Below, in pieces: positions 3,014-57,800 of a stretch of 64,000 nt of DNA. The DNA lies in IMG/VR virus record IMGVR_UViG_3300025697_003303. One strand, written 5' to 3'. The notes under the pieces were generated by a model. That model worked only from the letters and a program-made list of their open reading frames with translations, made no database searches and was not told where the DNA came from. A program made the position numbers and the translations under genes. Each line of letters begins with the position of its first letter. The first letter of the stretch is position 1. The stretch is from an uncultured virus (IMG/VR IMGVR_UViG_3300025697_003303). Taxonomy: Duplodnaviria > Heunggongvirae > Uroviricota > Caudoviricetes.

Positions 3014-4142
3014 TTTTCACCTGGTTTGTGATAGATAATATTATATGGTTTATAATTATACTTTTTTCTTCTATTTATAGCCTCTTTAATTATTCTACCC
3101 CACACCTGACGAGTAGGTGCCCCAGAAGTGGTAATGGAATGAGATTTTCTTTGTCGATATCTATAACATATAGTTTTAGAAAATAGTCCTATCCCAAGTT
3201 CTTCTAATCTATATCCCATATACTTATCAACAGAACATCTAAGTCCCGCTTTAAATATCTTATCAGGACGAGGACACCTATTAGAAAATGTTCTCCAATG
3301 AGAAAACCCATGTTGTTTTTTTATTCCCAATTGTAATAAACTTTTATACTTGCCAGGATGCCTACTCATACCCTTTTTTTGTGATATCATTTTTATATTA
3401 CATATTTGAAATTGTGTATAAATATATGTAACCTCTGGATATCCTTCGTATAGATCCATAACATGCTCAACTGCACCAGCTTTTAACATATCATCAGCAT
3501 CAAGGACTCCCATAAAATCTCCATTAGAGTGTAATCTGCATATTTCATATGAGCTTGCACAATACTTTCTTTTTTTGTTCTTAATATACTTAATATCTAT
3601 ATTATTTTTCACAAAATTATTTTTAAGCTTACGAATAGTATTTTTTGTTTTATTTCCATCATTAGAACAATCGTCTACAATGACAACTTCAAGTGGTCGA
3701 TATGTTTGTTGTAGTATGGACCTGGCCCAGTCATTAAGATATTTAGAACAATTATATGATGCTGTCATTATTGTGAAAAGTTTGTTCATTTTTATTTATT
3801 TACTGACCTTTTAATGGAGTTCGCATACATTGATGCTGTTATATTTATATCGACATCAATGCGACAACATCTTTCTTTTTTCTCAAGAATGTCATTGATA
3901 CCGTTAGACACAACATCAACTGGTAAATTATCAAGAATTTTAAACTTTTTGACTTTAAAATTCCATTTATCTACATCTAATATGACACCATCAGAAGCAA
4001 CAAGCTCTGGCGTTCCCCCTAGATTCGTACAAAGGACATTAAGACCGCATGCTAAACCCTCTATAACAGCATTTGGACAAGAATCTATATGACAAAGATG
4101 AATTTGATAGTCACATGCTTTCATTATAGATATAATATCTTC
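2314..4142. repeat. Dispersed 136-bp near-identical repeat (2314..2449 and 4007..4142) inside the two GT4 paralogs
   Basis: Manual alignment gives 7 mismatches in 136 bp, all transitions. Confidence 0.9.
3010..3789 (-). CDS. Glycosyltransferase family 2
   Basis: TIMTASYN, VDDCSND, LDADD. Paralog of 7066..7863. Confidence 0.9.
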   Translation of the reverse strand: MNKLFTIMTASYNCSKYLNDWARSILQQTYRPLEVVIVDDCSNDGNKTKNTIRKLKNNFVKNNIDIKYIKNKKRKYCASSYEICRLHSNGDFMGVLDADDMLKAGAVEHVMDLYEGYPEVTYIYTQFQICNIKMISQKKGMSRHPGKYKSLLQLGIKKQHGFSHWRTFSNRCPRPDKIFKAGLRCSVDKYMGYRLEELGIGLFSKTICYRYRQRKSHSITTSGAPTRQVWGRIIKEAINRRKKYNYKPYNIIYHKPGEK

Positions 4143-4733
4143 GCTAGAATTCTTACCAAGGAAATGTATAAAATTACTTTTATATTTAAATGGAATATCA
4201 TCATCTTTAAACTCACCTATAAAATACAAATGCCTACCAGTATTAGCCTCTAAAAATCCTCGTATTATCGACAACGGTCTTTTATTATCTCTCCCTCTCC
4301 AATTAGAACAAGCAACAAACGATCCTGGAACTATTTTATCACTTGCATCTATACTTTTAACCCATTTTAAATCTATGCCATTTTTTATTATATCATAAGG
4401 CTTGTTCCCAAATTTTAACAATTTCTTACACATCCTATATGAAAATTCAGACTGGAATATAAGATGTTTTGCATTTTTAATTGTTTTGATAATAGGAATA
4501 TTTTTATTGAAAACTTTCTTCCTATAATAACATCCATCTAACCTTACAATATAATTACCTTTATGCTTAGTTTTTTTTTCTACAATAACAAACTCGGTAT
4601 CAAAATTAGATTTTTCTTTATATGTGATCGAAATACCATCTTGTTTTTTTAAAAAAGGCAAAATCCTATCAAGAAAAACCCTTGGACCACCAGAAAAATT
4701 TGGTCTACGTAAAAATATTGTAACATTTTTCAA
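3792..4733 (-). CDS. Glycosyltransferase family 4 (TTG start)
   Basis: IKNGID, DSCPNAVIEGLACG...GGTPELV. Confidence 0.9.
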   Translation of the reverse strand: MKNVTIFLRRPNFSGGPRVFLDRILPFLKKQDGISITYKEKSNFDTEFVIVEKKTKHKGNYIVRLDGCYYRKKVFNKNIPIIKTIKNAKHLIFQSEFSYRMCKKLLKFGNKPYDIIKNGIDLKWVKSIDASDKIVPGSFVACSNWRGRDNKRPLSIIRGFLEANTGRHLYFIGEFKDDDIPFKYKSNFIHFLGKNSSEDIISIMKACDYQIHLCHIDSCPNAVIEGLACGLNVLCTNLGGTPELVASDGVILDVDKWNFKVKKFKILDNLPVDVVSNGINDILEKKERCCRIDVDINITASMYANSIKRSVNK

Positions 4734-4828
4734 AACGATCCTTTTTATTTATACTACAAAATACTATCTTTAACGAAAATCGTCAAACTTAAATATTTTA
4801 TAAAGCATGCGGTATTATTTTTAAGCTC

Positions 4829-5668
4829 CTAAGCAAAATCAACGTAATACCATCTTTTTTCTTTTTTATCATATAATATATTGCCATATTTCCTTTGAAG
4901 ATTTTTCAAAAAAGCCGACTTTCCCGATCTCATAGATTTCCATATTTTATTTCTTCTTACTTCTTTTTCTATGGTTTTACAAAATATTTTAAAATAATGT
5001 TTCGTAAACCTAGGATTTTCAGCAGAAAAACCATCACCATATAAAACATCTTTTTCTTCATTACTAAGTAAATACGCTGTATACCTTTTATCTGTCCACA
5101 ACTTAGTAAAAATAGACATAACTATATCTCGATTTTTTTCGCATAAATTAAAATCAAAAGAAGGAGTCACTATCCTTTTAGTAACAATTCCTATAGATTT
5201 ATAATTTAGTGTCTTTACTTTTACAACGTTATTTACACTACCTCTTACATAAAAGATGTCAATATTAATATTAACATTACATGTGCCAAATATTTTTGGG
5301 TATATTTTTTTATCTGATAAGCGATATGCACATTTAATATAATTTGATATAAAAGTATTTCCTGGCTTCTTCATACCAGGTATCAATGACATAAAAACAG
5401 ACACACCTTTTTTTTCTACCATTGGATAATAGAATTTCTTTCTTCCATAATAACCAAAAAACTTGCCGTCCTTAAAAGCTAAATTGCTTGGTGAAGATAT
5501 TAATAACGATTTATATAGTTTCATCTTCGATTGTAATTTAAGAATAGCTTCATGTAAACTGTCTTTTCTGGGAATGATGTCTCCAAGAAGCCCATCCTCT
5601 TTAACAAAAGCGGCTCGAATACCACATACAATTTTACCAGATATATTAATACACTTTTTTTTAATCAT
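4829..5668 (-). CDS. Hypothetical protein, possibly a degenerate kinase-like fold
   Basis: 279-aa ORF in operon context. C-terminal GNILYD...WYYVDFA loosely resembles kinase catalytic-loop/DFG segments. Confidence 0.5.
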   Translation of the reverse strand: MIKKKCINISGKIVCGIRAAFVKEDGLLGDIIPRKDSLHEAILKLQSKMKLYKSLLISSPSNLAFKDGKFFGYYGRKKFYYPMVEKKGVSVFMSLIPGMKKPGNTFISNYIKCAYRLSDKKIYPKIFGTCNVNINIDIFYVRGSVNNVVKVKTLNYKSIGIVTKRIVTPSFDFNLCEKNRDIVMSIFTKLWTDKRYTAYLLSNEEKDVLYGDGFSAENPRFTKHYFKIFCKTIEKEVRRNKIWKSMRSGKSAFLKNLQRKYGNILYDKKEKRWYYVDFA

Positions 5669-37419: not shown

Positions 37420-38226
37420 TTATTCAAATAATTTTATTTTGCATGAACGCTTATCTTTTACTATACTGCTAATGGTTAGACCAAACACATCTTCCCATCG
37501 ATTAGAATTATCTTCTATGTCAAACTTGAAAACAAATATTGTTGGCAATCCCGAATCAAGCCTTTCAGCAAAAAAGGGATCTATTAAAGACGACATATAA
37601 GCTTCTGATCCTCTAGTTAAACCAGAGTCAGAAGGAATATCATCAACAACTAGCCAATCACATGATTCTAAATGAGATATACTGTCATCTTCTTTACGTA
37701 TAAGATGTTTCAATTTGACAAAAGGAATCCAATCATACGTCTCAACTGCTCCACCTGGTTTTACTCTCTGTTTAATTGCTTCTCGCATAATAATAGAAGC
37801 AACAAATGTCTTACCTGTTTGAGATCCATTAAGAGAATATATTAAAACATTCGTACCATATTCCAACCTCTTATCCATAATAGATTTTTTATCAAGATCT
37901 AAATTCTTTTTATCATAACTATTAATTTGTAAATCATCAAGTGTAACGTTTCTCCAACAATACTTAAGTAAAATTGATTTTGCACTACTAACTACTGTTG
38001 GAGATAAGGATGTACCACTATCCGTAAGCCCATTAAAGTCCCATATTGTATATTTATGGTATGGGTGAGGGATAATAGAACATATATAAGCTTTTGTTTC
38101 TGCGGCTACTTTACATATGCATCCGTCTGGGTTAGAGCATTTCGAAATATCATCACCAATACAGTGTTCACATTGACTAGCGAAAATACGTTCTAATCTT
38201 AGTTTTGTTTTTGTTATATCTTTCAA
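37420..38226 (-). CDS. DnaC/IstB-like helicase loader ATPase
   Basis: N-terminal Cys cluster, GSQTGKTF, WLVVDDI, R..SGLPTIF. Confidence 0.7.
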   Translation of the reverse strand: MKDITKTKLRLERIFASQCEHCIGDDISKCSNPDGCICKVAAETKAYICSIIPHPYHKYTIWDFNGLTDSGTSLSPTVVSSAKSILLKYCWRNVTLDDLQINSYDKKNLDLDKKSIMDKRLEYGTNVLIYSLNGSQTGKTFVASIIMREAIKQRVKPGGAVETYDWIPFVKLKHLIRKEDDSISHLESCDWLVVDDIPSDSGLTRGSEAYMSSLIDPFFAERLDSGLPTIFVFKFDIEDNSNRWEDVFGLTISSIVKDKRSCKIKLFE

Positions 38227-38924
38227 TTTTCATCCAGTATGATACCGATTGCATCTTCTTCCTTTTTTACTTTTTGCGGTTTTGGCTTAGGATCTTTATT
38301 CGCAAAAACGAAACCACGCTCATGCGCGAGATCAGTCATGTCTTTGAAGTAATCTGGACGCATTTGTCTCTGAGGAGTAAAAGTTTTAAAAGCATTTACG
38401 ATATCTTTTGTTGTTAGCTCTCTCCTACTATCGGCAAAAGCTTCAAATAGTCCAACATGAATTGCCTTCTCAATTTCCGCTCCACTACAACCGTCAGATG
38501 CTTTGGAAATCCTCTTAAGATCAAAGTTTGCAGGAATCCTCTTGTTTCTTACTATTAAAACAGAAGCTATCTCTACTCTTTCATCTTCATTAGGAAAATC
38601 AACGAAAAAGATTTCATCAAAACGTCTGAAAAACGGAGTAGGAATTTTTTCTATTTCGTTAGCTGTTGCGACAACAAAAACATCTGCCGTTTTTTCTTCC
38701 ATCCAAGTTAAGAACGTTGAAACAACTCTATCTGTAGTTCCACCATCAGTTGAACTGCTAGATTCAGTCCCAGATAAACCCTTATCAATTTCGTCAATCC
38801 AAAGGCAACAATTATGACTTATCATCCCATTTGAAACATAATTGTTAGGGGATTCACAACAAGGATCATAAACATATTCGACTTCATTAACTTCTTCTAT
38901 TCCTACAACTTCTGCTACATTCAT
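38223..38924 (-). CDS. Split-intein C-fragment (38 aa, 38811..38924) plus C-terminal half of AAA+ ATPase (Ycf46-like)
   Basis: AGGAGA RBS; MNVAEVVGIEEV..YVYD..NNYVSNGMISHN|CCLWIDEIDKG (Walker B), FVVATAN, RRFDEIFFVDFP, SGAEIE. Confidence 0.92.
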   Translation of the reverse strand: MNVAEVVGIEEVNEVEYVYDPCCESPNNYVSNGMISHNCCLWIDEIDKGLSGTESSSSTDGGTTDRVVSTFLTWMEEKTADVFVVATANEIEKIPTPFFRRFDEIFFVDFPNEDERVEIASVLIVRNKRIPANFDLKRISKASDGCSGAEIEKAIHVGLFEAFADSRRELTTKDIVNAFKTFTPQRQMRPDYFKDMTDLAHERGFVFANKDPKPKPQKVKKEEDAIGIILDEN

Positions 38925-38933
38925 TATGTTCTC

Positions 38934-39074
38934 CTAGTTTTTGATTTTTCTATTTAAATGTTCGTTCAAATGACATTTTCGACATAACGCTATACCATTA
39001 CCGATATCAAAGAATAAACAATCGCTATATATTTTCTTCTTGTTAAACCCATGTTCTTTAACAAAATCATACAT
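38934..39074 (-). pseudogene. HNH endonuclease C-terminal remnant between the split-intein halves
   Basis: MYDFVKEHGFNKKKIYSDCLFFDIGNGIALCRKCHLNEH...; NGxxLCxxCH motif. Confidence 0.7.
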
Positions 39075-40512
39075 CGAGGAGTGTCACAATTTTATCTTTT
39101 ACTTTAATATCCTTCATTTTCTTCCATTCTTTTTTATTTTTATTTAAAACCAAAAATTTGTGGTCTTCAGAAACTTTAATTGTCGAGCCATCCGACAAAG
39201 TAATTTTATATACTTTTTTACTGTTAACTTTTCTTCGTATAATCGCTTTCAGTTTTGAACTAACAACCTTATCTTCTTCTACATCGAATGATGGGATCTC
39301 AATAGGATTATCCAATATAGCTATTGATGTTTTGTCAGAAATGTCAAACTTATTGTTAATTTGATCAAATGCTTTTCCTGCAACTATAGTGCCAGAATGT
39401 GTTTTTATCTTTGTTTCATAAGATACACACGGAGCCAACTCCTCACTTAAACGACAAGCTTCTCTAGCTTGCTCTTCTGATTCTCCAACGTGAGAACGGA
39501 ATAGAGTTCCAAAATCAAGTTTTAAAAGAGGAATGCCATAAAAATTTGCAATAGCTTTGGCTGTCAAGCTCTTACCTCCCCCTGGAATTCCGCAAATTAA
39601 TGCTCCCTTCAATGCAGGAAGACCAAATTCTTTTGCTTTAGGATCAAATACCTCTTTTCTACGTTCTAACCATGAACGCATATTAACAAGACCACCAACA
39701 TCATCCATCGTCAAATTCGGCTCATAAAACTCCAAAGTTCCACGTTGACGAATATACTGTTTCTTTTCGCCTAAAATAGCGTTAGTGTCAAACCCTCTAT
39801 GAACAACAACTGACTTAGACAAAGCCTTTTGAGCTTCAGTCAGAGTCAACCCATTAACAGAACCAACAATCTCGTGTTCATTGTCTTTGAACTGTTTCGT
39901 CAAATCTTTTTCTAATTTAACAGATTCCTTACCAACAGCAGTAAGTAAAGATTTAACAGTCCCCTTGATTTCACTCTTATTAGGATACGGAAAATCTAGA
40001 ACGCTGAAAAGATTATTTAAACCAGGTGGGATTGACAGAGAGTGACCAGTAATAACAATCATGGTCATAGAATCAATTTGAGCAAAAGTTTTGATCCTAC
40101 GCTCTGTCTCTGGATTATCAAGAAAATTATAAAAATCCAACATCAGATATATCTTACCATTAATTTGTTGAGCCTCATACCCGCCTTTCTTAGAGGCATC
40201 CGCTTTCGCGTCTTGTATAATATAGTGCAAAGCATTATCTGGATCAAGGACTTCATCTGAGACTGCCTTATCTATTTCTCCCGTCAATAGATCAGACATC
40301 CCAGTATAACAATCCCAAGTTGAAGCTCTGAAACCTCTCGACACAACAAGATGCTTAAAGTAATTCAACATTCGCTTCTCTTCTCGACATGTAAGAAAAA
40401 CGACTGGAGCACGGATCTTCATCAAAGCAACAAGCTCATCGGTAAACTCTGGAGTCGCCATTGTCTCTATGATCTTAATGCTTTCGCTAGGAGTACTATC
40501 TATTTTTGCCAT
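39067..40512 (-). CDS. N-terminal half of AAA+ ATPase (Ycf46-like) plus split-intein N-fragment (120 aa, 39070..39429)
   Basis: DVGGL..W, GIPGGGKSL, VGESE, LAP|CVSYETKI...IKVSEDHKFLV...WKKMKDIKVKDKI then stop. Confidence 0.92.
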   Translation of the reverse strand: MAKIDSTPSESIKIIETMATPEFTDELVALMKIRAPVVFLTCREEKRMLNYFKHLVVSRGFRASTWDCYTGMSDLLTGEIDKAVSDEVLDPDNALHYIIQDAKADASKKGGYEAQQINGKIYLMLDFYNFLDNPETERRIKTFAQIDSMTMIVITGHSLSIPPGLNNLFSVLDFPYPNKSEIKGTVKSLLTAVGKESVKLEKDLTKQFKDNEHEIVGSVNGLTLTEAQKALSKSVVVHRGFDTNAILGEKKQYIRQRGTLEFYEPNLTMDDVGGLVNMRSWLERRKEVFDPKAKEFGLPALKGALICGIPGGGKSLTAKAIANFYGIPLLKLDFGTLFRSHVGESEEQAREACRLSEELAPCVSYETKIKTHSGTIVAGKAFDQINNKFDISDKTSIAILDNPIEIPSFDVEEDKVVSSKLKAIIRRKVNSKKVYKITLSDGSTIKVSEDHKFLVLNKNKKEWKKMKDIKVKDKIVTLLDV

Positions 40513-40575: not shown

Positions 40576-41085
40576 TTATGCACTTTTTGGAGATAGAACT
40601 ACAATAATTGAACCTCCAGCAACTTTAGGAGGACTCCATGTAGCAATCTCATCAAACTCTGAGATATTCTCATTACATCTTTTTAGTGCCTCTTGCATAT
40701 CTCTTTTTTGTCTTCCTCTAACAGAGAATATATATTTGACTTTATTCTTCTTCCCAATAAACTTTTTAATTTGTCTATGTTTGGTCTGTAGATCATGAAC
40801 ATCTATACCTAACCCATTACGAAGATGGACTTCTTTAGTGACAGTTTGTTTCTTCTTTGGTTTCTTTTTGTTTTCTTCGTACCGTACCTTACCATAGTCC
40901 ATTATTTTGCATATCGGAGGTTTATCTTTATCCTGCGATATAAGAACGAGATCCAACCCAGCTTCATGAGAACAGCTTAATGCTTCAAACCTAGAGACTA
41001 CGCCTCTACTGTCTCCGTTCTCTAAAATCAAAAATATTTGTTTGCTTTTGATTCTTTCATTCGTTATTTTTCTATCTTTGCTAAT
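40576..41085 (-). CDS. infC: Translation initiation factor IF-3, ATT start
   Basis: AGGAGA-5nt-ATT then SKDRKITNERIK...AGLDLVLI..PPICKIMDYGK.RYE..KEV...HDL.TK..KVK..RGRQ. Confidence 0.9.
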   Translation of the reverse strand: MSKDRKITNERIKSKQIFLILENGDSRGVVSRFEALSCSHEAGLDLVLISQDKDKPPICKIMDYGKVRYEENKKKPKKKQTVTKEVHLRNGLGIDVHDLQTKHRQIKKFIGKKNKVKYIFSVRGRQKRDMQEALKRCNENISEFDEIATWSPPKVAGGSIIVVLSPKSA

Positions 41086-41947: not shown

Positions 41948-43047
41948 TGTGCAAAAATGACATATTCAATAGCTTTTCTATTCTCTTCAGAACGAGAATT
42001 ATATTCATAATCAATTGCTTCTACTTCTACGTCGCTTCTTACTTCAGATACGATCCTCTTTATGTTATCGATATCAGTCCAGCTAGAATCATTATAACTT
42101 ATAACAAGACACGAAATATCAGATAAAGATTTTAAAACAGAAATAAAATGTTCTTCATAATTCTTTTTCTTTGCGAATTTTTTCATAGAAGAGGATATAT
42201 CCCACTTGTCCATCGTTTGCTGACGAGCATAAGATTCGAAAAAATTAAACATAAGACCATAGTCGCTTTGCTGCCCTCCATATGGAGGATCGATATAAGC
42301 CAAGTCAATTTTCTCTTCCCTATACTCTTTAGAGTTAAGAAAATCAATTGCATCAAGACAGAAAGCCTTATTCCCCTCTACGCATTTTAACGAATCATCT
42401 CCCACAAATGAATACCAATGAATACTATTAAAAGACATAGGATAACCGCCATTTCGTTGATGACCAATCCTATGATCTAATTTCGCTAGAATTTGACCAC
42501 TATTAAGCCTACCTCCCAGATAACAATGTTTACTAATATAAATTTGGATATTAGCAAACGCCAATGCCTTCTCATAATCATTATCTAAATCATCAATATT
42601 AGCACGATAATTATCCAAAAACTCAGCTTCATCTGGTGTAAATCTCTCTTTATATTCTTTTCTAACAAATTCAATCTTACTATCATTATCATTCTTTAAC
42701 AAATAATCTTTTTGTTCTTGAGATAAAACAACAGAATTGTTGGCAACAAAAGCGTTGGCATAAAAATAAGAGCTTAACAGTATATCATTTGTTATTACCC
42801 TTTTCCCCATATATTTCATGACGAGAGAAACGCAGGCACTACCGCTGAATAAATCTAAAGCTGATTCATACTTAATGTTTCTTTGCTCGATTGATTCTAA
42901 TATTTTAGATACGATTTTCCTTTTATTTCCGGCATAAGGATTGTGCAAACCTTTTACTCTACCTTCAACATATTTGACTTTAGAGCTAAAAGTTTCTTCG
43001 CATTCCCCTGTCTCGAAATTTATATGTACTGGCGTATGTGCTCTCAT
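41944..43047 (-). CDS. DNA adenine methyltransferase (alpha class)
   Basis: PYAGNK, LDLFSGS, ITND, YIDPPY, ISYN. Confidence 0.9.
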   Translation of the reverse strand: MRAHTPVHINFETGECEETFSSKVKYVEGRVKGLHNPYAGNKRKIVSKILESIEQRNIKYESALDLFSGSACVSLVMKYMGKRVITNDILLSSYFYANAFVANNSVVLSQEQKDYLLKNDNDSKIEFVRKEYKERFTPDEAEFLDNYRANIDDLDNDYEKALAFANIQIYISKHCYLGGRLNSGQILAKLDHRIGHQRNGGYPMSFNSIHWYSFVGDDSLKCVEGNKAFCLDAIDFLNSKEYREEKIDLAYIDPPYGGQQSDYGLMFNFFESYARQQTMDKWDISSSMKKFAKKKNYEEHFISVLKSLSDISCLVISYNDSSWTDIDNIKRIVSEVRSDVEVEAIDYEYNSRSEENRKAIEYVIFAQ

Positions 43048-46000
43048 TTTATTTTCAGTTCATCAATATTAAATTCTGGTTCTGTTTGATATATACTTTT
43101 TCTTGCTCTGCTATGAGCAAACATATATTTACAATTGTCCATAAAATCTATAACTGTTGCTTCTTTTTTTCCAGGAAAGGTTCTTAAAATACGACCTACA
43201 CGTTGCAAAGCACGAGTTTTGGATTTGCCAGATCCCGCTAAAATTAAAGTATCTAATGGTCGGACGTTTATTCCTTCATCGAAAATAGTCGATGCGATTG
43301 TGACGGATGCTTTTCGTTCTCTTATCTCATCAAGGCGTTTTTTTCTTACCTTTGACGAATGAGATCCATGTATAAAAACGCTATCTGGTATTAAACTTTC
43401 TAGTATTTTACCATGCTTAATTTGTTTGCATAGAATAAGAACAACCCTATCATTTTCCATCATTTGTTTTGCGACTTTAGCAATAATATTATTCCTTATT
43501 GTATTGTTTACTATACCCTCTTTATAAGCAGTTGCATATGTCCCAAATTTCTTGCCTCTCATATTTGACATGGGGATAAAATATATATCTGGTTTAATAA
43601 GATAATTTTCTTTAATTAATTGTGATGCAGTAATATTACAAACTTTTTTCCCAAAACAAGCTTCAATCAAGATATCATCACCTTGGTCCCGGTAAGGCGT
43701 GGCGGAATTGTGAACTAGCACACCGTTAGCAACAAAAGAATGATGCCCTACCATTTCTAAGTCATACACGTATCCATCAGAAGGAATCTCTTTTATCTCC
43801 AACACCTTTTTTTCTATGCAATTAATTGGGAATTTTTTAACATTTCCTTTGCGTTTACTATTTATCCCATCTAGAGCATTGTCAGAAAATATAATTTGGA
43901 AAGAATCTCTCCTACCAATAATTCTTCTTCCATCTATTATCCCTCCTAAAGCTTTTTTTCTTTTGCTAACAGTATACGAAACATTTAAACTTCTTAATAG
44001 AGTCTTAATATCATCTACCATACCAGTAGAAGTACTTGTTATTCTAACATATCTACGATTACGTTTTATATCTCTTTCTCTTTTTTTTCTGATACCATCA
44101 GAATCTATCAATCCCTCTAATAACATTCTTCTACTTTCTTCATCTCCAAATAATAGTTCTTTAGGAATTCTTTTATCATAGCAACGGTATTCGCCAACAA
44201 TTTTTTTCAAGAAAGTTACTAATGGGAAACACGATATGCTAACCTCAAAAGAAGCCCCTTTCATCTTTTTGCATTTTGGATGAATTACTAAACCCTCTAT
44301 AGATTGCAATTTATTCAAAAATGTATCCAAAAAAGATTCTTCAACAGCAAATCTAATTCTGCTCCCATCAAACCATCCATCCCCTAAAAAGAATCCAATA
44401 ATATATGAAAAATTATTTAAAGACACAGAGGTAGAAAGACCAACTCCATTTGCTCCTTCTGTGTATATCCACTTCGGAGTTATACCATGTTTTTGAAAAA
44501 CTTCTAAATTATCCCTATATTGACTTAGATATAAAGATCCACCATATTTTTTTGACATTACTCCACGACGACATAATTGTGAATAAGAATGTTTATTCAA
44601 TCCTATTTCTGACAAAGGTATTCCCTTGAGATTAATACCAACCCTAAATTTATTTGAGGGTAAAGAACTAAGAATGTCTATTGACTCTGCCTTGTCTGAA
44701 TATCCAGCCCCATTATCTAATAATAATGTATCTCCGACTTCCAAATCTGAAGTTAAACATTGAATAATTTCGCCACTATCTGTAATTTTGAATATAGAAT
44801 GATCCTCTGTTAACTTAATGTTGTCTTTTCCAGCAAATCTGACCATATATGATGTAGATGTGTTTTTGTGTCTTATTATTCTTCGAACACCCTTCCAACG
44901 AAAACTCTCTTTTTCCCAACCTCTAGATTCGGCTCCTGATAAATCTATCACATCATAACCACCATCACACCTGAGAGAGTAATTCCCTAAAGACGCTCTC
45001 TTCCAAGCTTCTTCTATAGTAATGTTTTCTCCTCTCTCAAAAAACATATCTCCTTTTATTTCTATTTTTGTATCGCTAAAAACCGACATCCCATAACGAT
45101 ATCTACAACCCAATGACATATCTGAAATGACCTGGCACGAGTCCGACCGGACGTGCTGGCAATTATGAACCAAAATATCATTTGCAAAAAAGCAATGTGT
45201 TTCTTTAACGGTGATATCGTATACATCTTCTGAAGCTACTTCTTTTATGCTAACTATTTTTTGATATTTTGTATTGCATGCATGGAGGGATGTATTTTTT
45301 GACAGCTTTAAAAACCTCTCTTCTTGTTTCTGACAAAATTCCAATAAAATAGTATTTTTGCTTTTCTCTGTAAATTGAAACTGGTCCGTAGTTATCTGAA
45401 AACCATTCGGAAATGATTTCATTCTCTTCCAAAGAAAATCCCTCTGTGTGTAATCTAAGTTGCGAAGAGTTGCTTCCATCATCGCAGATCCACCATGCAA
45501 GTCCAATGGCCCCAATGGAATCGAGCCATTCCCTAGTAACGCACTTTCTTTTGGAGCCATTATGAGTGATTTCATAAATTTTGAGCAAAGATGGATGACT
45601 TCTAGTGTGGTAATGTATAAGCCAGTCTCCATAGCCTTTATTTTCAACTTTTTTAAGATATGGATAAAATCTGTGCAAAAAAGACATTTTATGTTCAACC
45701 CAATCTCTTTGATCCAAGCAATGATTCCCGCAAAGTCTTGATGAATCTCCAAGCAAAGTTCCAAGAATAGACTGTTTTTCGAGTTTATTAAGTCAGATAT
45801 CCCAATTGGGAGGTCTCTTATCATGCTGTTGGCAAAATTGACTGTAGCCCCTCTCCCCTTTTCTTTGAATAAATATCTCAAGAGTTGTTGCTCTAGGCTT
45901 AACTCTCTCTCCGCATCCGCACAAGCAAAACGGGGCATTCCTGACAATATTCTTATATATCTTTTTCCATTCCTGATCTGTTCTTTTTTTAACTTGGTGT

Positions 46001-47138
46001 CCAAGTATATATCTTTGCCTTGAACATCCTGATAAAACTTGTCCGCAGCCGCACTCACAAGTCCTAATATCTTGTCTTTTTTTGTTATTTTTCCGGCTTT
46101 TTTCCACCCTGAGTCCGTCATCAACGGATGATTTTTTGTGCATTTTATCCTCCTGCATGATTCTAATTCTATTTCAATTATTTCTTTATTGCCCATTCTA
46201 AAAAAATCAGTTATTTCAGACCATATGGGCTTTTGACCATTATAACTAAGAATGAGTTTACAATTACGCGACTCTATCTCATCTATTCTTACCTTTCCTT
46301 GTTCTGTGTGAACGAGAGTATCACCAGTAACACATTCGTCCACGATCATTCCTTTTGCAGACAGTATAAGGTCTTTAATTTCTATCTTATTTTTTTCAGA
46401 AACACCTTTTTCTTTGACAATTTTTTCTTCGTCATCAAATTTTTTATACTTCATACCACATGCTCGAACAGCAGTTTGAATTGTCATAACGTTTATATCT
46501 TTTATATTACATTTACCGTCTCCGATTACACCAACGTCAAGAGATGATCCATTATAATTAATAAATCGTTCTAATTCGTCTTTTGCTTGATTTAGAAGAT
46601 CTTTAGATGTCACATAAAAAACAAATGGACTAACATTTAGTTTAGCTATAATCGAAGCTCCTATGAAGCTTTTGCCACTTCCAGTAGCCGCTTGAAGCAC
46701 TCCACGTTCTACATTGCATGCCTTATTGATGGCATCCGTTTGATAATCTCTATCCTCAAACTCTCCAGTATCCATTATGAGATTAAGAGATTTACAAACT
46801 TTTTCTCTTTTATCGTAGACTTTGCATGTCATATACTGACTCTTGAAGTAAGCTATTGCTTTACTCGCTAAACCAGTGGGGAAATGAGTTCCTTGTTTTT
46901 TTACAGCACATTTGCATTTCGCACTATTATAACAAACTGTAGTTACAAGTCCATCATATTCTTTAAGCCAAGGCTTATTTTCAATATCAGGGTCTAATTG
47001 TATTTGTTGTATACGATAAAGAGCGTCTTCTGGCATATATCCTAAAGCTCTTTTAAGACCTTGATAAACTTCAGATTTGAGCCTACCCTGCACGAACGTG
47101 ACAGTATTAGTTATGATTAAAGATATTTCGTTAGACAT
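43044..47138 (-). CDS. SF2 DEXH helicase (UvsW/XPB-like) with two inteins
   Basis: RDYQ, ATGSGKS, VDE|CQH, GM|SATPYR, STIFDEGIN, LQRVGRILR. Confidence 0.93.
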   Translation of the reverse strand: MSNEISLIITNTVTFVQGRLKSEVYQGLKRALGYMPEDALYRIQQIQLDPDIENKPWLKEYDGLVTTVCYNSAKCKCAVKKQGTHFPTGLASKAIAYFKSQYMTCKVYDKREKVCKSLNLIMDTGEFEDRDYQTDAINKACNVERGVLQAATGSGKSFIGASIIAKLNVSPFVFYVTSKDLLNQAKDELERFINYNGSSLDVGVIGDGKCNIKDINVMTIQTAVRACGMKYKKFDDEEKIVKEKGVSEKNKIEIKDLILSAKGMIVDECVTGDTLVHTEQGKVRIDEIESRNCKLILSYNGQKPIWSEITDFFRMGNKEIIEIELESCRRIKCTKNHPLMTDSGWKKAGKITKKDKILGLVSAAADKFYQDVQGKDIYLDTKLKKEQIRNGKRYIRILSGMPRFACADAERELSLEQQLLRYLFKEKGRGATVNFANSMIRDLPIGISDLINSKNSLFLELCLEIHQDFAGIIAWIKEIGLNIKCLFCTDFIHILKKLKIKAMETGLYITTLEVIHLCSKFMKSLIMAPKESALLGNGSIPLGPLDLHGGSAMMEATLRNLDYTQRDFLWKRMKSFPNGFQITTDQFQFTEKSKNTILLEFCQKQEERFLKLSKNTSLHACNTKYQKIVSIKEVASEDVYDITVKETHCFFANDILVHNCQHVRSDSCQVISDMSLGCRYRYGMSVFSDTKIEIKGDMFFERGENITIEEAWKRASLGNYSLRCDGGYDVIDLSGAESRGWEKESFRWKGVRRIIRHKNTSTSYMVRFAGKDNIKLTEDHSIFKITDSGEIIQCLTSDLEVGDTLLLDNGAGYSDKAESIDILSSLPSNKFRVGINLKGIPLSEIGLNKHSYSQLCRRGVMSKKYGGSLYLSQYRDNLEVFQKHGITPKWIYTEGANGVGLSTSVSLNNFSYIIGFFLGDGWFDGSRIRFAVEESFLDTFLNKLQSIEGLVIHPKCKKMKGASFEVSISCFPLVTFLKKIVGEYRCYDKRIPKELLFGDEESRRMLLEGLIDSDGIRKKRERDIKRNRRYVRITSTSTGMVDDIKTLLRSLNVSYTVSKRKKALGGIIDGRRIIGRRDSFQIIFSDNALDGINSKRKGNVKKFPINCIEKKVLEIKEIPSDGYVYDLEMVGHHSFVANGVLVHNSATPYRDQGDDILIEACFGKKVCNITASQLIKENYLIKPDIYFIPMSNMRGKKFGTYATAYKEGIVNNTIRNNIIAKVAKQMMENDRVVLILCKQIKHGKILESLIPDSVFIHGSHSSKVRKKRLDEIRERKASVTIASTIFDEGINVRPLDTLILAGSGKSKTRALQRVGRILRTFPGKKEATVIDFMDNCKYMFAHSRARKSIYQTEPEFNIDELKIK
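43707..45086 (-). mobile_element. Helicase intein 2 (460 aa, Ser N-terminus) in motif III, with in-frame LAGLIDADG endonuclease
   Basis: YGM|SVFSDT...LTEDHS...IIGFFLGDG...LLEGLIDSDG...VYDLEM..HHSFVANGVLVHN|SATP. Confidence 0.93.
45162..46334 (-). mobile_element. Helicase intein 1 (391 aa) in motif II, with no recognisable in-frame endonuclease
   Basis: DE|CVTGDTLV...CTKNHPL...VYDITV..THCFFANDILVHN|CQH. Confidence 0.92.
45250..46143 (-). pseudogene. Nested out-of-frame homing endonuclease gene (two CxCGCG motifs + LAGLIDADG_2) inside intein 1, interrupted by one TGA at 45793..45795
   Basis: AGGAGG (46149..46154) 5 nt before ATG 46143; CECGCG, CLCGCG, ILGTLLGDS, LAWWICDDGS, LHTEGFS. Track ORFs 45793..46158 and 45250..45756 share one frame. 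Confidence 0.85.
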
Positions 47139-51847: not shown

Positions 51848-54800
51848 TTATACGCTGATATTAACAGATGCATTAAAGAACGAACACTCTCCAACGCCTC
51901 TCAGAGTGAAATCTCCGAGTACACCTTCGCTTGTTTCATCACAACACAATGTAGAATCAGAAATGTCTTTAAACCTATCATTCTCTAAGGTTACACATGT
52001 GCATTCGTTAGGATCTGCACCAAAGACAGCAATGTCAGAAGATCTATCATAAATTTGAGCATAATAAGTTTGGTCTGTCTTACAATATATTACAATCAAA
52101 ACAACGTTAGCTGCGATTCTAGAGAACCACCATCCAACAAACCCAACAGTATCTAACGTAGCATCGTATGCATAAGTTCCTTGTACTCTCTCGTAGCAAG
52201 AATTCCCAGGGACAGAATCAATAAAAACTGAAGCTGTTGTTTGTGTAGGATCGTTACATGTAATCCATGGGAAGTCAGAGCAGACGTTCCCGCTAGTTGC
52301 TGTAGGAGTAGTCCCTTGTAAATAATCTTTAATACTTTTTTCCGTAGCAAACATCTCAGAAAATCCGTGGAAACTAATTTCTGTATTAACATCGCTGTTG
52401 TCAATTCTAAACCCAGATCTTATTTTACTAGGATCTTGTATTCTAATAATATAATTATCATACATTTTTGTAGAGAACACTACCAATCCATCTCTAGGAT
52501 GTAACTCATAAGAACTAGATGATATCGTATTATTAGAAGAATCGAAGATAGTAACACTTGATTCGTAATCCCAACTTCCATATGTTGCCTTGAATTCATA
52601 ATTATCTACATTAACTAAAGATTCAGAACGAATACCTACAATATTTCTATTCCTTACTGGCAAGACTACTCCACCGCCTGCATTTGGGCGTGACGGCTTA
52701 GCTCCGCTATCAAAATCGTTCCAGTTATGAGATGCAGAAGTAGAGACCCCAAACTTTACTTCTCCTTCATCTGTAGAATCTAGAGTTGATACAACTTGTC
52801 GATTATTGTCATCAACAGTATGCTCATTGACGAATAAATAATCTGTTTTTACAGCAGTATATGTTAATCCGAATCCCTCTATTAAAGGATGTCCCGTAGA
52901 AGACCCATCATTCACTTCTTCATTTGTAGTTGTAAGACAACTTGTTATCTTCATGTCTAGTTTTACATATCTTACATCTAGATCAGAAAAACCAACATCA
53001 AAACCAGGTTCAAAATAAATCGTATATGGAGAATAATCATAACCATCATCACTAGCAGACATTCTCCACTCTCCTGACGTATTCGCTGGTAATTCGAATA
53101 AAACGTTCGCAGAATTAAGATTAACAACTTCTCCAAAATCAATAGTATAGATAGCAGATCCATAACCCAAAGAACCTTTAGTCTTCCCTGTCATTATGCA
53201 AACTAAATCATCCTCAAAAGAATCAGATACGATACTAAAACTTTGTCCACCAGTATGATATGACAATTTATCTAAAATAATAGAACCAGTCCTATCTATA
53301 CTAGACGAGATAACAGAAGGATTCTTCAATGACAAATTGCCAACGATAAGAGGAACCTCTTGATAGTTGTCTATATCATTAACAGCATCAATCGCTTCTT
53401 GATAATTCTTCGTAGAAACATTTGGACTATTATCTGCAAAAGTATAGATAATCTTATCGTTGGCGTCATAACTCTGATCATTCAAAACAGTAGAAACAGT
53501 GTACAATGAGTCATACAAAGGAGAAGACCCGAATGGAATTTCTTCAGATATAGTATCTATAATAGTTAAAGCTTCACTACTGACAACGGCTCCACTACTC
53601 GTATGATCTATAACCGAAGGAACTGTCATATTACTAGACAAAATATCAGTTGAGACTGAATTGTTCTGGTAGAGAGGAGCAGATACGATCTTAAAAACAT
53701 TATCGCTAAAAATAGATTTAAAATTAAGCGATGCAATTGTTATGTTAGAGGTGACAGGAACTATACAAGAAGGCGAAAGAGTAGCAGCCTCACTAGCGTC
53801 ATTAACTATAGAGACTAATGTCTGTCCATAATATGAAGTAAACCCGCCAGAAGCAGTACCAACAGTCTCTGGGACAAACCCATCCACTATAGTAGACTGA
53901 AGAACTATTTTATATAGATTATTATCTAACCCTTCTGTAAATACCATCTCGTCAACGACTCCTTTAATCATATCGTCGGAACGAGGTTTCAAAGAGAATA
54001 CAGATTCTCCATCTATGACACTTATTTCATCTTCATCAAATAATACATTATATGGCAAAAAGCTTTCTGGGATCAATGTTATATCTTCTGCATCTGACAA
54101 TTGTAAGTACCCTGCAAGCTTTACTGTCGCTAAAACATCAACATTACCGCCGTCATCAACAGCACTTACTTTAGCTCCTAAATACTGATTTCCGTTAAGA
54201 GACATTCCATCTTCATATGGTTCAATAGATATCTTGAGAAAACCATTACCCTTTCCACTTTCTATCCCGCCTACATACATAACATGAGAATGACCATTAT
54301 ACGAAACAATCGCAGCAGCACCGCCATCCTTTGATTTGGTAGTATTACCTAATTCTAAAACATCATATGGGATATCACCGCCTATATTTTCAATAGATTC
54401 AAACATCTTAAGTGTTTCTGAATTAGAATTAAAACCGCCTATAGAATAAACTCTTCCTCCGTCAATAGCAGATGCAGAAAAACATCTAGGCTGCAACATA
54501 TGATTAAACTTATTATTAATGACATCAAGAGACCCAGAAGAAACATTATATGAAAAACCTGTAGCATAATATTCCAAAGAAGCATCTATTTTTTGAAAAG
54601 CTCCAGACAAAACAACTATATCATTACCATCAACAAATGACAAAGGAGAAATCCTACTATAAGTTTTAAACTCTGTCTCAGATATTGCGTCAGAATATCC
54701 CCACTCATCGCTACTTATGTTATAATGAAGAATTCTATCATTGTAATCCACGAAAGATCCATTATCTGTTATATCTCTAATACCACTAACAATATATATC

Positions 54801-57800
54801 CTATTCAGAGAAGGAATATATGTGGCAGAACCAAAAGCGATTCCATACCCAACCTTATCGATAGAGCCTATATCTATTAATGGCATACTCTCCATTTCGC
54901 TCCATGTATCAGTAACCGCATCATACTTTTCAGTTGCTCTAGAAGTATATACTATATTTTTTGTTTTATCATATTGTATCCCGCCAAATATATATATGTC
55001 CGTACCAACAACAACGGACATTGCTCCCATTCTTTCAGTTGGCATAGATGTCATTGTCATCCATGAGTCATTAGATATGTTATATCTTTCAACAGTAGGA
55101 AGTATTTCGTTCGCACCAATACCGCCAATAGCATATAGCTGGTCTAAAACAGACTCAACACATAAATGCCCTCTAGCAGTAGACATTGAAGATGACTGAG
55201 ACCATTCATTCGTAAACGTATCGTATTTATCTGTTCTAACACTAAAAATACTTCTAATATTATCAGAGGATGATTGATCTTTCCAATCATCTGAATCGTT
55301 TCTCAACAATAGGCATATCGTCTCTGTTCTCTTTATGTTCCCTATATTATCATCAAACAAAGAATATGTTGCAGTAAGATATATATTCGCAGCAATATCT
55401 TTATTAGACTGTAAAGGCTGCAATTCTACAGTGGCATAGCTTCTCTCTCTATCTGCATCTACTTCAGTGTCAACATAAGTTAATGTCTTTATTTTACTAT
55501 CAACAGCTTGAACTGAATTCTCCGTGTGATTAACTATTTTTATATCTATTTCCGTACCGTCTGGAACAAAAGTATCTGCAAAAGAGACATCTAATATAAA
55601 TTGATTAATTGATTTTCCATCTAATATTACTCCCTCTATTCTACTAATATCATCTCCATTTTTAGCCCTCCTATCTACGACTCTTATTCTCAATGATTCT
55701 TCAGGGACCAAAACTGTCGGTACTAAACCATTCCCAAATGATCCTCCACCAGTAAGCGTTAGAGTTTCATTATCAAAAACAGAAACGATATGACCCGTAA
55801 CAGTTATCTCATTATTATACAGTGAGTACTTATCTGCTGCTATAGGAGCACAATCTGTACGTAGACTCTCAAATCCTGTAATTTCTGCATCAGTATCTTT
55901 TCTGTTTAGTCTAAAATATACAAAAGTATTATCATACTGAGAAAGATTAACTGACGCTGCTCCGTGATCAATAGTAGCATTATCTGTATTAAGAACCCAT
56001 CTATCGAGATATGGGTCAAGATACTCAACAACATCTCCCCAAATTACCTCAACTTCTGGATCGCTCGTATCGATTCTAATCATCATGCCATGATTTAGTT
56101 GATGGATTTCATTACCCACAGAAGTCATACATTGTCTAAACGGTTCAGAATACTTAGTAGTAGAAGTCTCAGCATTATGAGAAATAGTGAGGGTCGCATA
56201 CCCGATACCATCACTCCAAAACTTTTGTTTCAGGTCAGCAAACTCCATCAAGAGATTAGAAGACATTACTCTATGCCCCTTTTCCCTTAGAGGTATAAGT
56301 TCTATTACTTGAGAATCGCTTGCTGTCAAACCATCATAAAAGACAGACACATTCATTGTATGCGTTTCATACTCAAAACCAGAACCATCTATTTGCACAT
56401 TATTAATCGGTCCTAAAAATACATTTCTAGCAACACTTTTATTCAAGAAAGAAAAGATACCGTTTGGATCACCAGTATTATCTTTAGAATAAAAGATTCT
56501 ATCAATAGCATTATCCTTTTTAGTTAGACTCCATTCGGCTGTAGCTGTGTCAGGTAAGAAGGTTCTTTTAGACAGATCTTTAGGATCGTCTGGATCTAAC
56601 ATATAAACAATCGCTGTTTGTTCTAAAATCTGACGACCATCAGATAAAGGAACATTAGGCTGTATGTCAACCACTAAAGGATTCCCGAAAACGATTAATT
56701 TCTTTTTTACAATTGTCGAACCATTACGCAAACGAACTTTTATATACAATAAAACAGTTTGAGCTTGATCTGGAGTCGCCAAAGATATATCTGCATAAGT
56801 TACATTTTCTGTTTCGCCAGTTAAAACTCCATATATATCTCTTTTTTCTCTTGTCCCTGAAACAACCTCGATAGCACTATTGACATAAGAATAAACGCTC
56901 AACAAACCTGTCACTGGTTGGACTTCATCTACATCAAAATCTACTGTAGCATCATAAACTGTAGCACTAACAACTGTATTATTAGATCTAGCAGAAAGAT
57001 ATTCATCTTTTAAGTAAACTCTAGAGATATAAGAAGAAGATGACGTAGCATATGTTCCGTTATAATTAGCAGTAGAAGACGGTATCTGACTATCTAACGC
57101 ATTTATCTTTTGTTTACTAACCACTTCAACGTACTTGCTATCTTTATTCTCTACTTCAAATGATAATTTATTTTTCCACTCTACTTGAATAATTCTTGAT
57201 TTATATACGAATTCAAGACCCTCAAAAGACACAGTAAATCTTATTGACAATAATACAGATTGTAAGTTAGACAAGAGAGAAACATCTTTTGTCAACCTCA
57301 AAATCCCTCTCGATAAACCGTTGTCCAATTTTGTAACCGTCAATCCATATAATTCATTTATATCTGGAGCGTTTACAGCAGTATCTCCAGCAAAAATATC
57401 TTCAGCAACATCGTCTGGATATGTATAAGACGCATTTTCGATTTCCCATGAGATAGTATAATCTCTACTAATATGATTATCAGATTGATCGGTCATCTTC
57501 ATATAGAAGACAATATTCTCGTCAAAGAAAGTACTTATGTCTCTTTTTGGAACAAAATTATCCCACAAAACCTTCAAACTTGAACCGCTTACTATTTCAT
57601 AATGTACGTTTTTAACATCTTCCAAAGGAATTTGAGATTCACTTAGACCGCTCAAAGGGATTATGCTAACAGTGCTGGAACTAGATGGTCTCCCAAACAT
57701 ATCAATAGTAGATATCGTATAATAATAACGAGTATCATTGCTTAATAATCTGTCTATATATTTAATTTTAAATACATCATCGTCAAAAACTAAAATACCA

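Follow-up and report, generated by a model that had tools for sequence, protein, structure and literature searches.

The locus examined here raises the question of what the centre of an intein encodes when its own reading frame runs on without a stop and resembles no domain. The window, by which we mean the entire 64,000-nt stretch of DNA that was analysed (from an uncultured virus of the Caudoviricetes), carries a 1364-codon ORF (43044..47138) that is open throughout and encodes an SF2 (ResIII/Helicase_C) helicase precursor with two inteins. This gene and the parts of its inteins described below lie on the minus strand. Intein 1 (45162..46334, 391 codons) is inserted in helicase motif II (DE/C...HN/CQH, slashes marking the splice junctions). 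Intein 2 (43707..45086, residues 685-1144 of P0001, Ser1...HN/Ser) has no counterpart in the relative termed L058. An earlier note on this DNA had proposed that a homing endonuclease gene (HEG) is nested in the -1 frame of intein 1 and is translated from its own ribosome-binding site, and had pointed to the DnaE intein and helicase intein 2 as carriers of in-frame endonucleases. The latter point was borne out by Pfam, which places LAGLIDADG_3/Hom_end domains in frame in both.

Splicing blocks and an open centre

The two ends of intein 1 form a splicing domain. The N-terminal part (46047..46334, residues 1-96) contains C1, T66 and H69, and the C-terminal part (45162..45278, residues 353-391) contains D373, H390 and N391, followed by Cys as the +1 residue (CQH). 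All 17 aligned inteins, that of the window among them, share C1 and the block B (TxxH) residues T66 and H69, and D373 (block F), H390 and N391 are likewise invariant in the alignment. In the host frame, the Pfam profile Intein_splicing (PF14890) matches intein 1 with an E-value of 1.9e-19 and 70 bits (cutoff 35.8), and an AlphaFold2 model of host-frame intein 1 has pLDDT values of 88-96 for both parts. Judged by catalytic residues, Pfam profile and predicted fold, intein 1 belongs to class 1, and its splicing blocks are normal, as had been noted from the letters alone. Because the catalytic residues are intact and the host is a replication helicase, we infer that the Hint domain still splices itself from the precursor.

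Between these parts the host frame (45279..46046, residues 97-352) is stop-free. A Pfam search of this centre of about 256 codons found no domain, in agreement with the first reading of the sequence, and its pLDDT of 24-52 in the AlphaFold2 model indicates no confident fold. When the -1-frame codons were resampled synonymously according to the codon usage of the window, a stop-free host frame arose in 0 of 20,000 trials, the mean being 14.8 stops; permutation of the existing codons produced one in 4 of 20,000. The third frame holds 30 stops. The openness of the host frame is far beyond chance, and the sole apparent role of this linker is that the helicase frame stays open.

An endonuclease gene in the -1 frame

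The -1 frame of the same DNA encodes a recognizable endonuclease, as proposed. Its first section (45793..46143, 116 codons, ending at TGA 45795-45793) carries two zinc-finger-like CxCGCG modules, CECGCG at 46059-46042 and CLCGCG at 45927-45910. The second (45250..45792, ending at TAG 45252-45250) is a LAGLIDADG_2 domain that has no start of its own before motif 1. It includes the LAGLIDADG motifs ILGTLLGDS (45768-45742) and LAWWICDDGS (45501-45472), with both catalytic motifs (GD, DDG) intact, and LHTEGFS at 45453-45433. Profile searches by frame separate the two functions: Intein_splicing is found in the host frame, and LAGLIDADG_2 (PF03161) in the -1 frame only, with an E-value of 7.1e-20 and 72 bits (cutoff 25) over profile positions 4-163 of 168. 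The corresponding -1 frame protein of L058 was modelled with a mean pLDDT of 84.5, and the PDB entries that it matches best are those of I-WcaI (6x1j, E 2.5e-13) and I-SceI. Upstream, AGGAGG (46154-46149) is separated by a 5-nt spacer from ATG 46143-46141, the whole signal (46141..46154) lying within the host codons C-R-R-I-K-C. The initiation signal and the final TAG of the ORF proposed to run from 46143 to 45250 are thus present as described; its continuity is not, because the TGA interrupts it.

A longer ORF encloses the HEG out of frame at all 27 metagenome loci, at 16 of 32 viral loci and at 2 of 20 genome loci. From these come 24 distinct sequences of this type, the window and 23 relatives, with GC contents of 0.25-0.60. 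In 23 distinct lineages, including those with as little as 25% GC, the HEG frame runs for 261-360 codons without a stop, and upstream of motif 1 all 23 relatives keep it open over 76 codons or more. Host-frame stops in the 23 relatives number 0, and codon permutation leads one to expect 3.1-10.6, a comparison that is partly circular since the loci were preselected for an open host frame. Together with the resampling results, this agrees with the proposal that the overlapping intein frame is kept open. The data support an arrangement in which overprinting has placed the HEG in the -1 frame, flanked by the splicing blocks, and the helicase frame stays open there only as a linker.

The two frames also differ in their substitution patterns. 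For the intein centre, dN/dS was 0.15 in the HEG frame versus 1.2 in the host frame for the pair L002-L007, and 0.15 versus 0.76 for the window and L058; these are Nei-Gojobori values for two pairs only, and such estimates are biased on overlapping frames. Mean pairwise amino-acid identity was 0.36 in the HEG frame versus 0.24 in the host frame, even with a host-frame-guided alignment. By these measures, purifying selection appears to switch frame exactly at the intein centre, where it acts on the endonuclease frame and not on that of the host. Between the window and L058, pS is 0.26-0.45 in the intein and 0.57-0.77 in the extein, a comparison which indicates that intein 1 is younger than its host gene.

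Proposed expression and probable inactivation of the endonuclease gene

Taken as a whole, we consider it probable that the overprinted HEG is functional in intact relatives and was recently knocked out in the window, with splicing preserved. The HEG encodes two CxCGCG modules and an I-SceI/I-WcaI-like LAGLIDADG_2 domain and lies between the splicing blocks in the -1 frame. In intact relatives, the helicase frame crosses the overlap as about 256 residues of structureless linker, and amino-acid constraint is borne by the HEG frame. The Hint domain would excise itself from the precursor. The HEG would be translated separately from internal starts that overlap conserved codons of the host frame, for Cys (block B) and for Trp, and the endonuclease would cut intein-less DEC/H alleles, leading to homing. 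In the window, the HEG would just have been lost to a nonsense codon (TGA) and to an in-frame deletion of 33 nt that removes the first DNA-binding hairpin. Because both lesions leave the essential helicase frame open, the window element is probably passing into the decay phase of the homing cycle, with its splicing preserved.

Conservation of AGGAGG-ATG among homologues had been proposed as a check: AGGAGG-N5-ATG occurs in only 2 of 24 sequences, the window and its closest relative L058, whose stretch is identical. A start-type codon (ATG, GTG or TTG) is present in the HEG frame at position 1 in 22 of 24 sequences and at position 2 in 23 of 24, and the xTG at these positions is forced by the host-frame Cys and Trp codons. 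Internal initiation is plausible but unproven, because the ribosome-binding signal is so restricted and the Cys codon of the host frame would itself impose the xTG.

Two lesions distinguish the window copy, each present in the window alone among the 24 distinct sequences. One is the TGA at 45795-45793, which stands in place of the AAA (Lys) seen in L058 and precedes LAGLIDADG motif 1 by 8 codons. In the other, just after motif 1 at junction 45740..45741, 33 nt have been deleted by comparison with L058 and every other relative, with the loss of 11 residues that in L058 read ILFPSTRSKNP (136-146). In the L058 model these form strand beta1 (E135-137) and the hairpin up to beta2 (E147); they are present in 23 of 23 relatives and include a nearly invariant Pro. 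Consequently, the window copy has no uninterrupted ORF with a start covering the LAGLIDADG_2 domain, nor a complete alpha-beta-beta-alpha-beta-beta-alpha core for both halves.

The reading that competes best with this one, although we think it unlikely, is that the -1 frame gene of the window is an active endonuclease made from AGGAGG-ATG 46143, either by readthrough of the TGA or as a two-piece protein. The AGGAGG-N5-ATG signal resembles the phage's own ribosome-binding sites, such as the one ahead of the gene that starts at 33780; neither LAGLIDADG motif is damaged; the HEG frame is as constrained relative to L058 as noted above; and derived amino-acid changes since the split from L058 are not in excess on the window branch (9, with 9 on that of L058). 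Moreover, the TGA and the deletion are stable in contigs from runs dated 2017-2019, so that the variant could be tolerated or even functional. Against this, 35 of the 83 long stop-to-stop ORFs in the window end in TGA, which is for that reason an ordinary stop there rather than a recoded codon. No ATG, GTG or TTG was found between TGA 45795 and LAGLIDADG motif 1, the deleted residues are those kept in every relative, and the LAGLIDADG_2 score has fallen to 72 bits from 83 in L058 and 94-95 in L007 and L002. The TGA and the hairpin deletion make translation of one protein from ATG 46143, as first envisaged, impossible in the window. To judge from sequence and model, its HEG copy is probably inactive; because it shows no decay beyond the two lesions, either inactivation was very recent or some activity is retained.

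Programmed -1 ribosomal frameshifting, for example on A-AAA-AAA near 46085-46078, would instead join the endonuclease to the N-extein and the N-terminal part of the intein. This is very improbable. The host frame does contain a heptamer A AAA AAA immediately upstream of the first CxCGCG module, and a -1 step leads from this frame to that of the HEG, but the heptamer is not conserved (L058, L002 and L007 are non-slippery there), and start-type codons are kept at both HEG start positions in nearly all sequences.

A shade less credible still is the idea that the -1 frame is the fossil of an in-frame endonuclease, left by two old compensating frameshifts and expressed by no family member. In-frame versions of the same LAGLIDADG_2 clade do occur in long ORFs, one of them, P0056, being a protein named RecA by its source that also has an Intein_splicing domain, and the window's own copy is broken. 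A fossil, however, would not remain stop-free over such lengths in 23 distinct lineages, even at the lowest GC content, and would not yield the low dN/dS of the HEG frame beside the relaxed host frame; frame-specific selection, as estimated here, already contradicts this reading.

Sequencing error is excluded as the source of the two-frame layout, because independently assembled contigs of four runs (X1, X8, X9 and X13) agree without indels, their spanning pieces showing 0 differences, although X1 and X8 may be source samples of the window DNA, which bears on that agreement. Despite homopolymer A runs near both frame-switch points, an artefact of two compensating indels or a non-standard genetic code has a negligible chance of being correct, given the same frame relation in 23 other distinct sequences and a standard code that explains the window's genes well.

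Comparison with known systems

I-SceI and I-WcaI (LAGLIDADG_2) are monomeric double-motif homing endonucleases that are typically intron-encoded or free-standing. The proteins described here share their two LAGLIDADG motifs with acidic residues (Pfam 72-95 bits), and the L058 protein superposes on 6x1j with a target-normalised TM-score of 0.73 and an rmsd of 2.8 Å over 208 columns. They differ in having about 120 extra N-terminal residues with the two CxCGCG modules and in being encoded out of frame inside an intein; the copy in the window, in addition, is without beta1 and the hairpin and lies behind a stop codon.

A homing endonuclease encoded out of frame within an intein is a rare but already described layout, so the suggestion of a new architecture has to be withdrawn. 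Gorbalenya reportedly described in 1998 a cyanobacterial DnaX intein with an out-of-frame (+2 ORF) LAGLIDADG homing endonuclease. This intein, with its LAGLIDADG gene in the +2 frame, is treated in a recent preprint (Phillips, DeSimone and Gogarten, bioRxiv 10.64898/2026.09.14.751524). As far as the accessible text of that source goes, it resembles the helicase intein in having host-frame splicing domains around a low-confidence centre, a LAGLIDADG endonuclease encoded on the same strand in the +2 (that is, -1) frame, a motif resembling a Shine-Dalgarno sequence upstream of the endonuclease start, low dN/dS in the endonuclease frame with high dN/dS in the host frame, and a structural match to I-WcaI (6X1J), which is the best match here too. 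Unlike the DnaX intein, the elements described here reside in a phage SF2 helicase (motif II, DEC/H) rather than dnaX, their carriers are phage or viral contigs of 25-60% GC, and the HEG of the window copy is broken. The phage SF2 helicase is a new host gene for a known kind of intein.

'Non-canonical' inteins of actinobacteriophages (Gosselin, Arsenault and Gogarten, bioRxiv 10.1101/2025.01.02.630785) are similar in that the endonuclease frame differs from that of the exteins and splicing domains, and in that the in-frame centre has no recognizable structure. Among the cases in the accessible portion of that preprint, in contrast, the same-strand out-of-frame endonuclease is endonuclease VII-like (an HEN in frame 3), the LAGLIDADG cases are antisense, and the hosts are DNA polymerase, minor capsid, terminase and thymidylate synthase genes, not helicases. 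The ShiLan-type element, an out-of-frame HNH insertion in phage methylases (PMC11855218), likewise hides an endonuclease ORF in another frame of an insertion that is open in the host frame, and shares a homing-like distribution; as presented in the part of the article consulted, its nuclease is HNH and it is without a splicing domain, and hence is not an intein.

Possible relationship to the DnaX intein

Among solved structures, the splicing domain of the window family is nearest to the Spl DnaX mini-intein (7cfv), which the intein profile matches with an E-value of 1.6e-36 and 129.6 bits; the next-best structure reaches 7.6e-24 and 87.9 bits. Intein 1 of the window itself matches 7cfv with an E-value of 2e-16, and the HEG profile matches P0051, a protein of the cyanobacterium Laspinema, with 5.4e-69. 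It is possible, if somewhat short of an even chance, that the phage helicase inteins are the same composite element as the cyanobacterial dnaX intein, namely a DnaX-type Hint domain with a -1 frame zinc-finger/LAGLIDADG_2 gene.

Were this so, the helicase inteins would be the phage-borne pool that the 2026 preprint (bioRxiv 10.64898/2026.09.14.751524) was unable to trace, and the overprinted pair would have passed as one element between two unrelated replication genes, dnaX and the SF2 helicase (motif II), while both frames stayed open. The HEG starts would be built into the host-frame codons for Cys (block B) and Trp, and the window would represent a first step of decay under a two-frame constraint. 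Such a lineage link would bear on the origin of that classic non-canonical intein.

The family may serve as natural material for the maintenance of two overlapping frames, one for its sequence and the other only for its openness, and for endonuclease decay when only frame-preserving lesions are tolerated. Overprinted HEGs in inteins had been regarded as rarities, and single-frame annotation overlooks them; Gosselin et al. argue that annotation misses such inteins (bioRxiv 10.1101/2025.01.02.630785). One helicase insertion site provides at least 24 distinct examples, and further out-of-frame nests were found in a DEAD-type helicase and in terminase-like genes, all of which speaks for the view, recently put forward, that inteins of this sort are common among phages. 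The practical message for the window is modest: intein 1 can be annotated as an intein of the DnaX type that contains, out of frame, a disrupted LAGLIDADG_2 pseudogene. The copy in phage FoX3 is annotated merely as 'putative DNA helicase'.

Two genes overlap in the centre of helicase intein 1

The ORF 43044..47138(-) encodes a 1364-residue ResIII/Helicase_C helicase (P0001) that carries two inteins. Intein 1 (46334..45162, 391 codons) is inserted at motif II (DE|C...HN|CQH), and its splicing residues C1, T66, H69, D373, H390 and N391 are invariant in 17/17 aligned relatives, in keeping with the normal splicing blocks described in an earlier note on this DNA. The centre of the intein, said there to be stop-free and to resemble no domain in the intein frame, indeed has no stop and gave no Pfam match in that frame. 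An AlphaFold2 model of intein 1, built with the aligned relatives, has pLDDT values of 88-96 at residues 1-96 and 353-391, and of 24-52 at residues 97-352. The overlapping -1 frame encodes the endonuclease that the note had recognized, with two CxCGCG modules and a LAGLIDADG_2 domain (Pfam E 7.1e-20, 72 bits, profile positions 4-163 of 168), and its final TAG lies at 45252-45250. Also as described, the DnaE intein and helicase intein 2 are canonical, with their endonucleases in frame. Intein 2 (43707-45086 (-)) has the form Ser1...HN|Ser, contains an in-frame LAGLIDADG_3/Hom_end endonuclease and begins 25 codons past intein 1; it is precisely missing from L058, the nearest relative of the window, so its presence is variable among relatives. 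A blastn search of the phage collection with the helicase gene returned no match.

Given this overlap, we considered whether sequencing errors or chance could account for it. Contigs assembled separately from four metagenome runs (X1, X8, X9 and X13) cover 45100-46400, and the pieces that span the region carry no differences and no indels. This agreement, which is between contigs rather than raw reads, excludes the compensating frameshift errors that the earlier note had named as a possible source of the arrangement. When synonymous codons of the -1 frame were resampled by the codon usage of the window, the helicase frame was stop-free in 0/20000 trials (mean 14.8 stops), and permutation of the existing -1-frame codons left it stop-free in 4/20000; its openness is therefore not due to chance. 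The third frame of the overlap contains 30 stops. Many short contigs from the same four runs match solely the C-terminal splicing block and junction (45157-45192) at 85-95% identity and are divergent on either side; these communities seem to harbour several related inteins or alleles.

The arrangement recurs in an environmental family

A tblastn search with the -1 frame protein found a match in gp40 of Xanthomonas phage FoX3, a 'putative DNA helicase', in a frame that differs from that of the annotated CDS. The FoX3 helicase contains the same intein (DEC|...HN|CH), the centre of which is likewise uninformative. Among viral contigs there were 32 loci, in 16 of which the endonuclease lies inside a longer ORF in another frame (11 with the frame relation of the window and five with the other offset); the remainder comprised eight in frame with an ORF of 580-1649 codons, seven of free-standing size and one ambiguous case. 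Nesting was found at 2/20 loci in genome contigs and at 27/27 in metagenome contigs, where 26/27 have the frame relation of the window. After near-duplicates were dropped, the window's type was represented by 24 distinct sequences (the window among them), with G+C contents of 0.25-0.60. Upstream of motif 1, the endonuclease frame runs for 76 codons or more without a stop in 23/23 relatives, and 19/23 have two CxCGCG modules. Homologues had been expected to keep both an open intein frame and the ribosome-binding site, and the first of these held: the helicase frame has no stop in 23/23 relatives, where codon permutation predicts 3.1-10.6 and at most 21/2000 permutations per relative are stop-free, a count that is partly circular because an open helicase frame was the criterion for calling a locus nested.

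Some loci depart from this pattern. The three lowest-GC relatives (L062, L066 and L070; 0.25-0.31) have endonuclease ORFs of 261-270 codons, with stops between the usual starts and the second CxCGCG module; these ORFs keep one module and have a start farther downstream. A second type of nest (L017-L020) lies in a DEAD/Helicase_C helicase that has a helix-hairpin-helix domain at its C terminus and an intein at DEC|...HN|CH; its LAGLIDADG_2 gene (114 bits) lies at the other offset, and a Cys-rich tail at the C terminus takes the place of the N-terminal modules (in L017, host 1630-4860, endonuclease frame 2471-3244). Two further long ORFs, L022 1543-5301 and L084 713-4165, likewise have inteins that enclose out-of-frame LAGLIDADG_2 genes. 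For L084, the host has a match to the ATPase domain of terminase gpA. The L022 host, which we read as terminase-like solely on its sequence, has Pfam matches to intein and endonuclease families only and contains a second, canonical in-frame intein. In the database protein P0053, the helicase and the N-terminal splicing domain of the intein continue directly into the endonuclease frame, omitting the first CxCGCG module and leaving that frame close to its end; P0053 is a frameshifted variant or else an intermediate on the way to an in-frame fusion.

Purifying selection moves to the endonuclease frame

Amino-acid identity across the overlap, averaged over the 36 pairs of nine distinct sequences in a helicase-guided alignment, was 0.364 for the endonuclease frame, 0.238 for the helicase frame and 0.200 for the third frame. 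Two pairs of sequences were near enough for Nei-Gojobori estimates of dN/dS by frame, an analysis that the earlier note had proposed. Between the related loci L002 and L007, the helicase and endonuclease frames gave 0.19 and 0.78 in the N-splicing block, 0.25 and 1.6 in the C-extein, and 1.2 and 0.15 in the intein centre, and between the window and L058 the centre gave 0.76 and 0.15; such estimates are biased for overlapping genes, but the contrast is large. Purifying selection thus moves to the endonuclease frame at the intein centre in both pairs. Between the window and L058, pS within the intein (0.26-0.29 in the splicing blocks, 0.45 in the endonuclease frame of the centre) is far below that of the exteins (0.57-0.77), as would be expected if the intein had recently spread laterally.

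The -1 frame protein of L058, modelled with 23 relatives, has a mean pLDDT of 84.5, with most of the endonuclease domain above 90. Among solved structures, I-WcaI (6x1j; E 2.5e-13, TM-score to target 0.73) and I-SceI match it best; on these matches the predicted product is a monomeric endonuclease resembling I-SceI, extended at its N terminus by ~120 residues that hold two zinc-finger-like modules.

The endonuclease gene of the window carries two lesions

The earlier note had the endonuclease ORF run from ATG 46143 to 45250. Its two ends are correctly placed, but an in-frame TGA (45795-45793) terminates the ORF after 116 codons, eight codons upstream of the first LAGLIDADG motif, and the -1 frame from this TGA to motif 1 contains no ATG, GTG or TTG. 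The window copy also lacks 11 residues directly after that motif. L058, which is 86% identical to the window in nucleotide sequence across the intein and 81% identical in the amino acids of the -1 frame, has AAA (Lys117) at the site of the TGA and 33 extra bases that encode ILFPSTRSKNP (residues 136-146), which form strand beta1 and the hairpin toward beta2 in the predicted model. This segment is kept in 23/23 relatives, and each lesion is confined to the window (1/24 sequences). Both lesion sites are also covered by contigs from X9 and X13, which differ from the window at 0-1 positions; X1 and X8 are possibly the window's own source. The LAGLIDADG_2 Pfam score is 83 bits for L058 and 94-95 bits for L007/L002, against 72 bits for the window.

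Reading the TGA as a sense codon under an alternative code was rejected, since TGA ends 35/83 long stop-to-stop ORFs in the window and the standard code accounts for them. The helicase frame survives both lesions, as the TGA is read there within Ser-Asp and the length of the deletion is divisible by three. Derived amino-acid changes gave no sign of relaxed constraint in the window, with 9 on its branch and 9 on that of L058. As the copy bears two lesions and is otherwise undecayed, we read the inactivation as very recent: it is probable that the window holds a freshly disabled homing endonuclease gene within a still functional intein.

Candidate translation starts

The AGGAGG that had been reported five bases before ATG 46143 is present. 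AGGAG-type ribosome-binding sites at similar spacing are frequent before the phage's own genes, and AGGAGG occurs 13 times in the window against 19.6 expected, so that the motif count on its own is uninformative. The endonuclease frame has two conserved sites for start-type codons. Position 1 (ATG 46143 in the window) overlaps the block B Cys codon and is ATG in 15, GTG in four, TTG in three, CTG in none and another codon in two of the 24 sequences. Position 2, 12 codons downstream, overlaps a Trp codon, and the corresponding counts are 17, five, one, one and none. Because the host Cys and Trp codons force TG at these positions, only the base before TG is free. The suggested conservation of the AGGAGG-ATG pair did not extend through the family, as a strong, correctly spaced AGGAGG was found in the window and L058 only (2/24); a GAGG or GGAG core lies 5 nt upstream of position 2 in seven relatives. 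In a diverged relative from run X1 (record 6, 12 differences in 89 bases), differences at 46149-46152 give AGAAAA for AGGAGG, and the Shine-Dalgarno-like hexamer is thus not retained in that variant. Internal initiation from a putative Shine-Dalgarno site is a plausible route to the endonuclease. A programmed -1 frameshift at A-AAA-AAA (~46085) was rejected as the mechanism of the family; this site exists in the window and is not conserved.

Relation to known systems

Earlier cases of out-of-frame endonucleases in inteins were reportedly described by Gorbalenya in 1998. The overprinted architecture proposed for intein 1 is real, conserved and under selection, although it belongs to a known kind and is not new in itself. 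What is new here is the host gene (a phage SF2 helicase, at motif II), the extent of the environmental family, and the probable fresh inactivation of the window copy, which spares the helicase frame. According to a recent preprint, a cyanobacterial dnaX intein contains a LAGLIDADG endonuclease in a +2 ORF, the source of which its authors found untraceable; it likewise has a low-confidence centre, frame-specific dN/dS, Shine-Dalgarno-like motifs and an overlay on I-WcaI 6X1J (bioRxiv 10.64898/2026.09.14.751524). A hidden out-of-frame HNH gene has been described within a methylase insertion that, unlike intein 1, is not an intein (PMC11855218). In a full-text literature search, the accessible texts name no helicase host for published out-of-frame inteins, and supplements may add cases.

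When 17 helicase inteins were combined into a profile, its top solved match was the Spl DnaX mini-intein 7cfv (E 1.6e-36, 129.6 bits), well ahead of DnaB, the next solved intein (87.9 bits), and the window intein alone matches 7cfv at E 2e-16. The endonuclease profile matches P0051, a homologue from the cyanobacterium Laspinema (E 5.4e-69) that has three CxCGCG-type modules and an N-terminus resembling that of the window. Taken together, the 7cfv and P0051 matches suggest that common descent of the helicase intein element with the dnaX element is likely. Two further searches were uninformative: a word-based one with the N-terminal splicing domain of the intein (P0001 residues 269-365) returned five proteins, none of them DnaX, and the ESM Atlas gave for P0051 only generic LAGLIDADG_2 clusters (scores up to 0.77).

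Genomic surroundings

Judging by its Pfam content, the window looks like a large phage replication module, with matches to DnaE (with an in-frame intein), a DnaB-like helicase, a UvrD helicase, RecA and a Dam methylase. The minus strand carries nearly all long ORFs, and G+C is 30-39% nearly throughout, with 45% in the final 2 kb. Contigs from many runs with the label salt lake metagenome contain the stretch.

Three neighbouring genes deserve mention. A 151-residue IF-3 homologue is encoded at 40576-41031 (-) (Pfam IF3_N E 2.6e-19, IF3_C E 1.3e-14). An AAA+ ATPase (38223-40512 (-)) is split by an intein over two ORFs separated by a gap of about 140 nt: 39067..40512 (-) encodes the N part of the ATPase, followed by the N-terminal portion of a splicing domain of the intein type (Pfam profile 25-94), and 38223..38924 (-) opens with the C-terminal part (profile 121-155) and continues into the remaining AAA domain and lid, an arrangement that looks like a naturally split, trans-splicing intein. 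Finally, a 2642-residue ORF at 51848-59776 (-) with Kelch beta-propeller repeats and a Laminin_G_3 (concanavalin-like) domain may encode a giant structural or host-binding protein.
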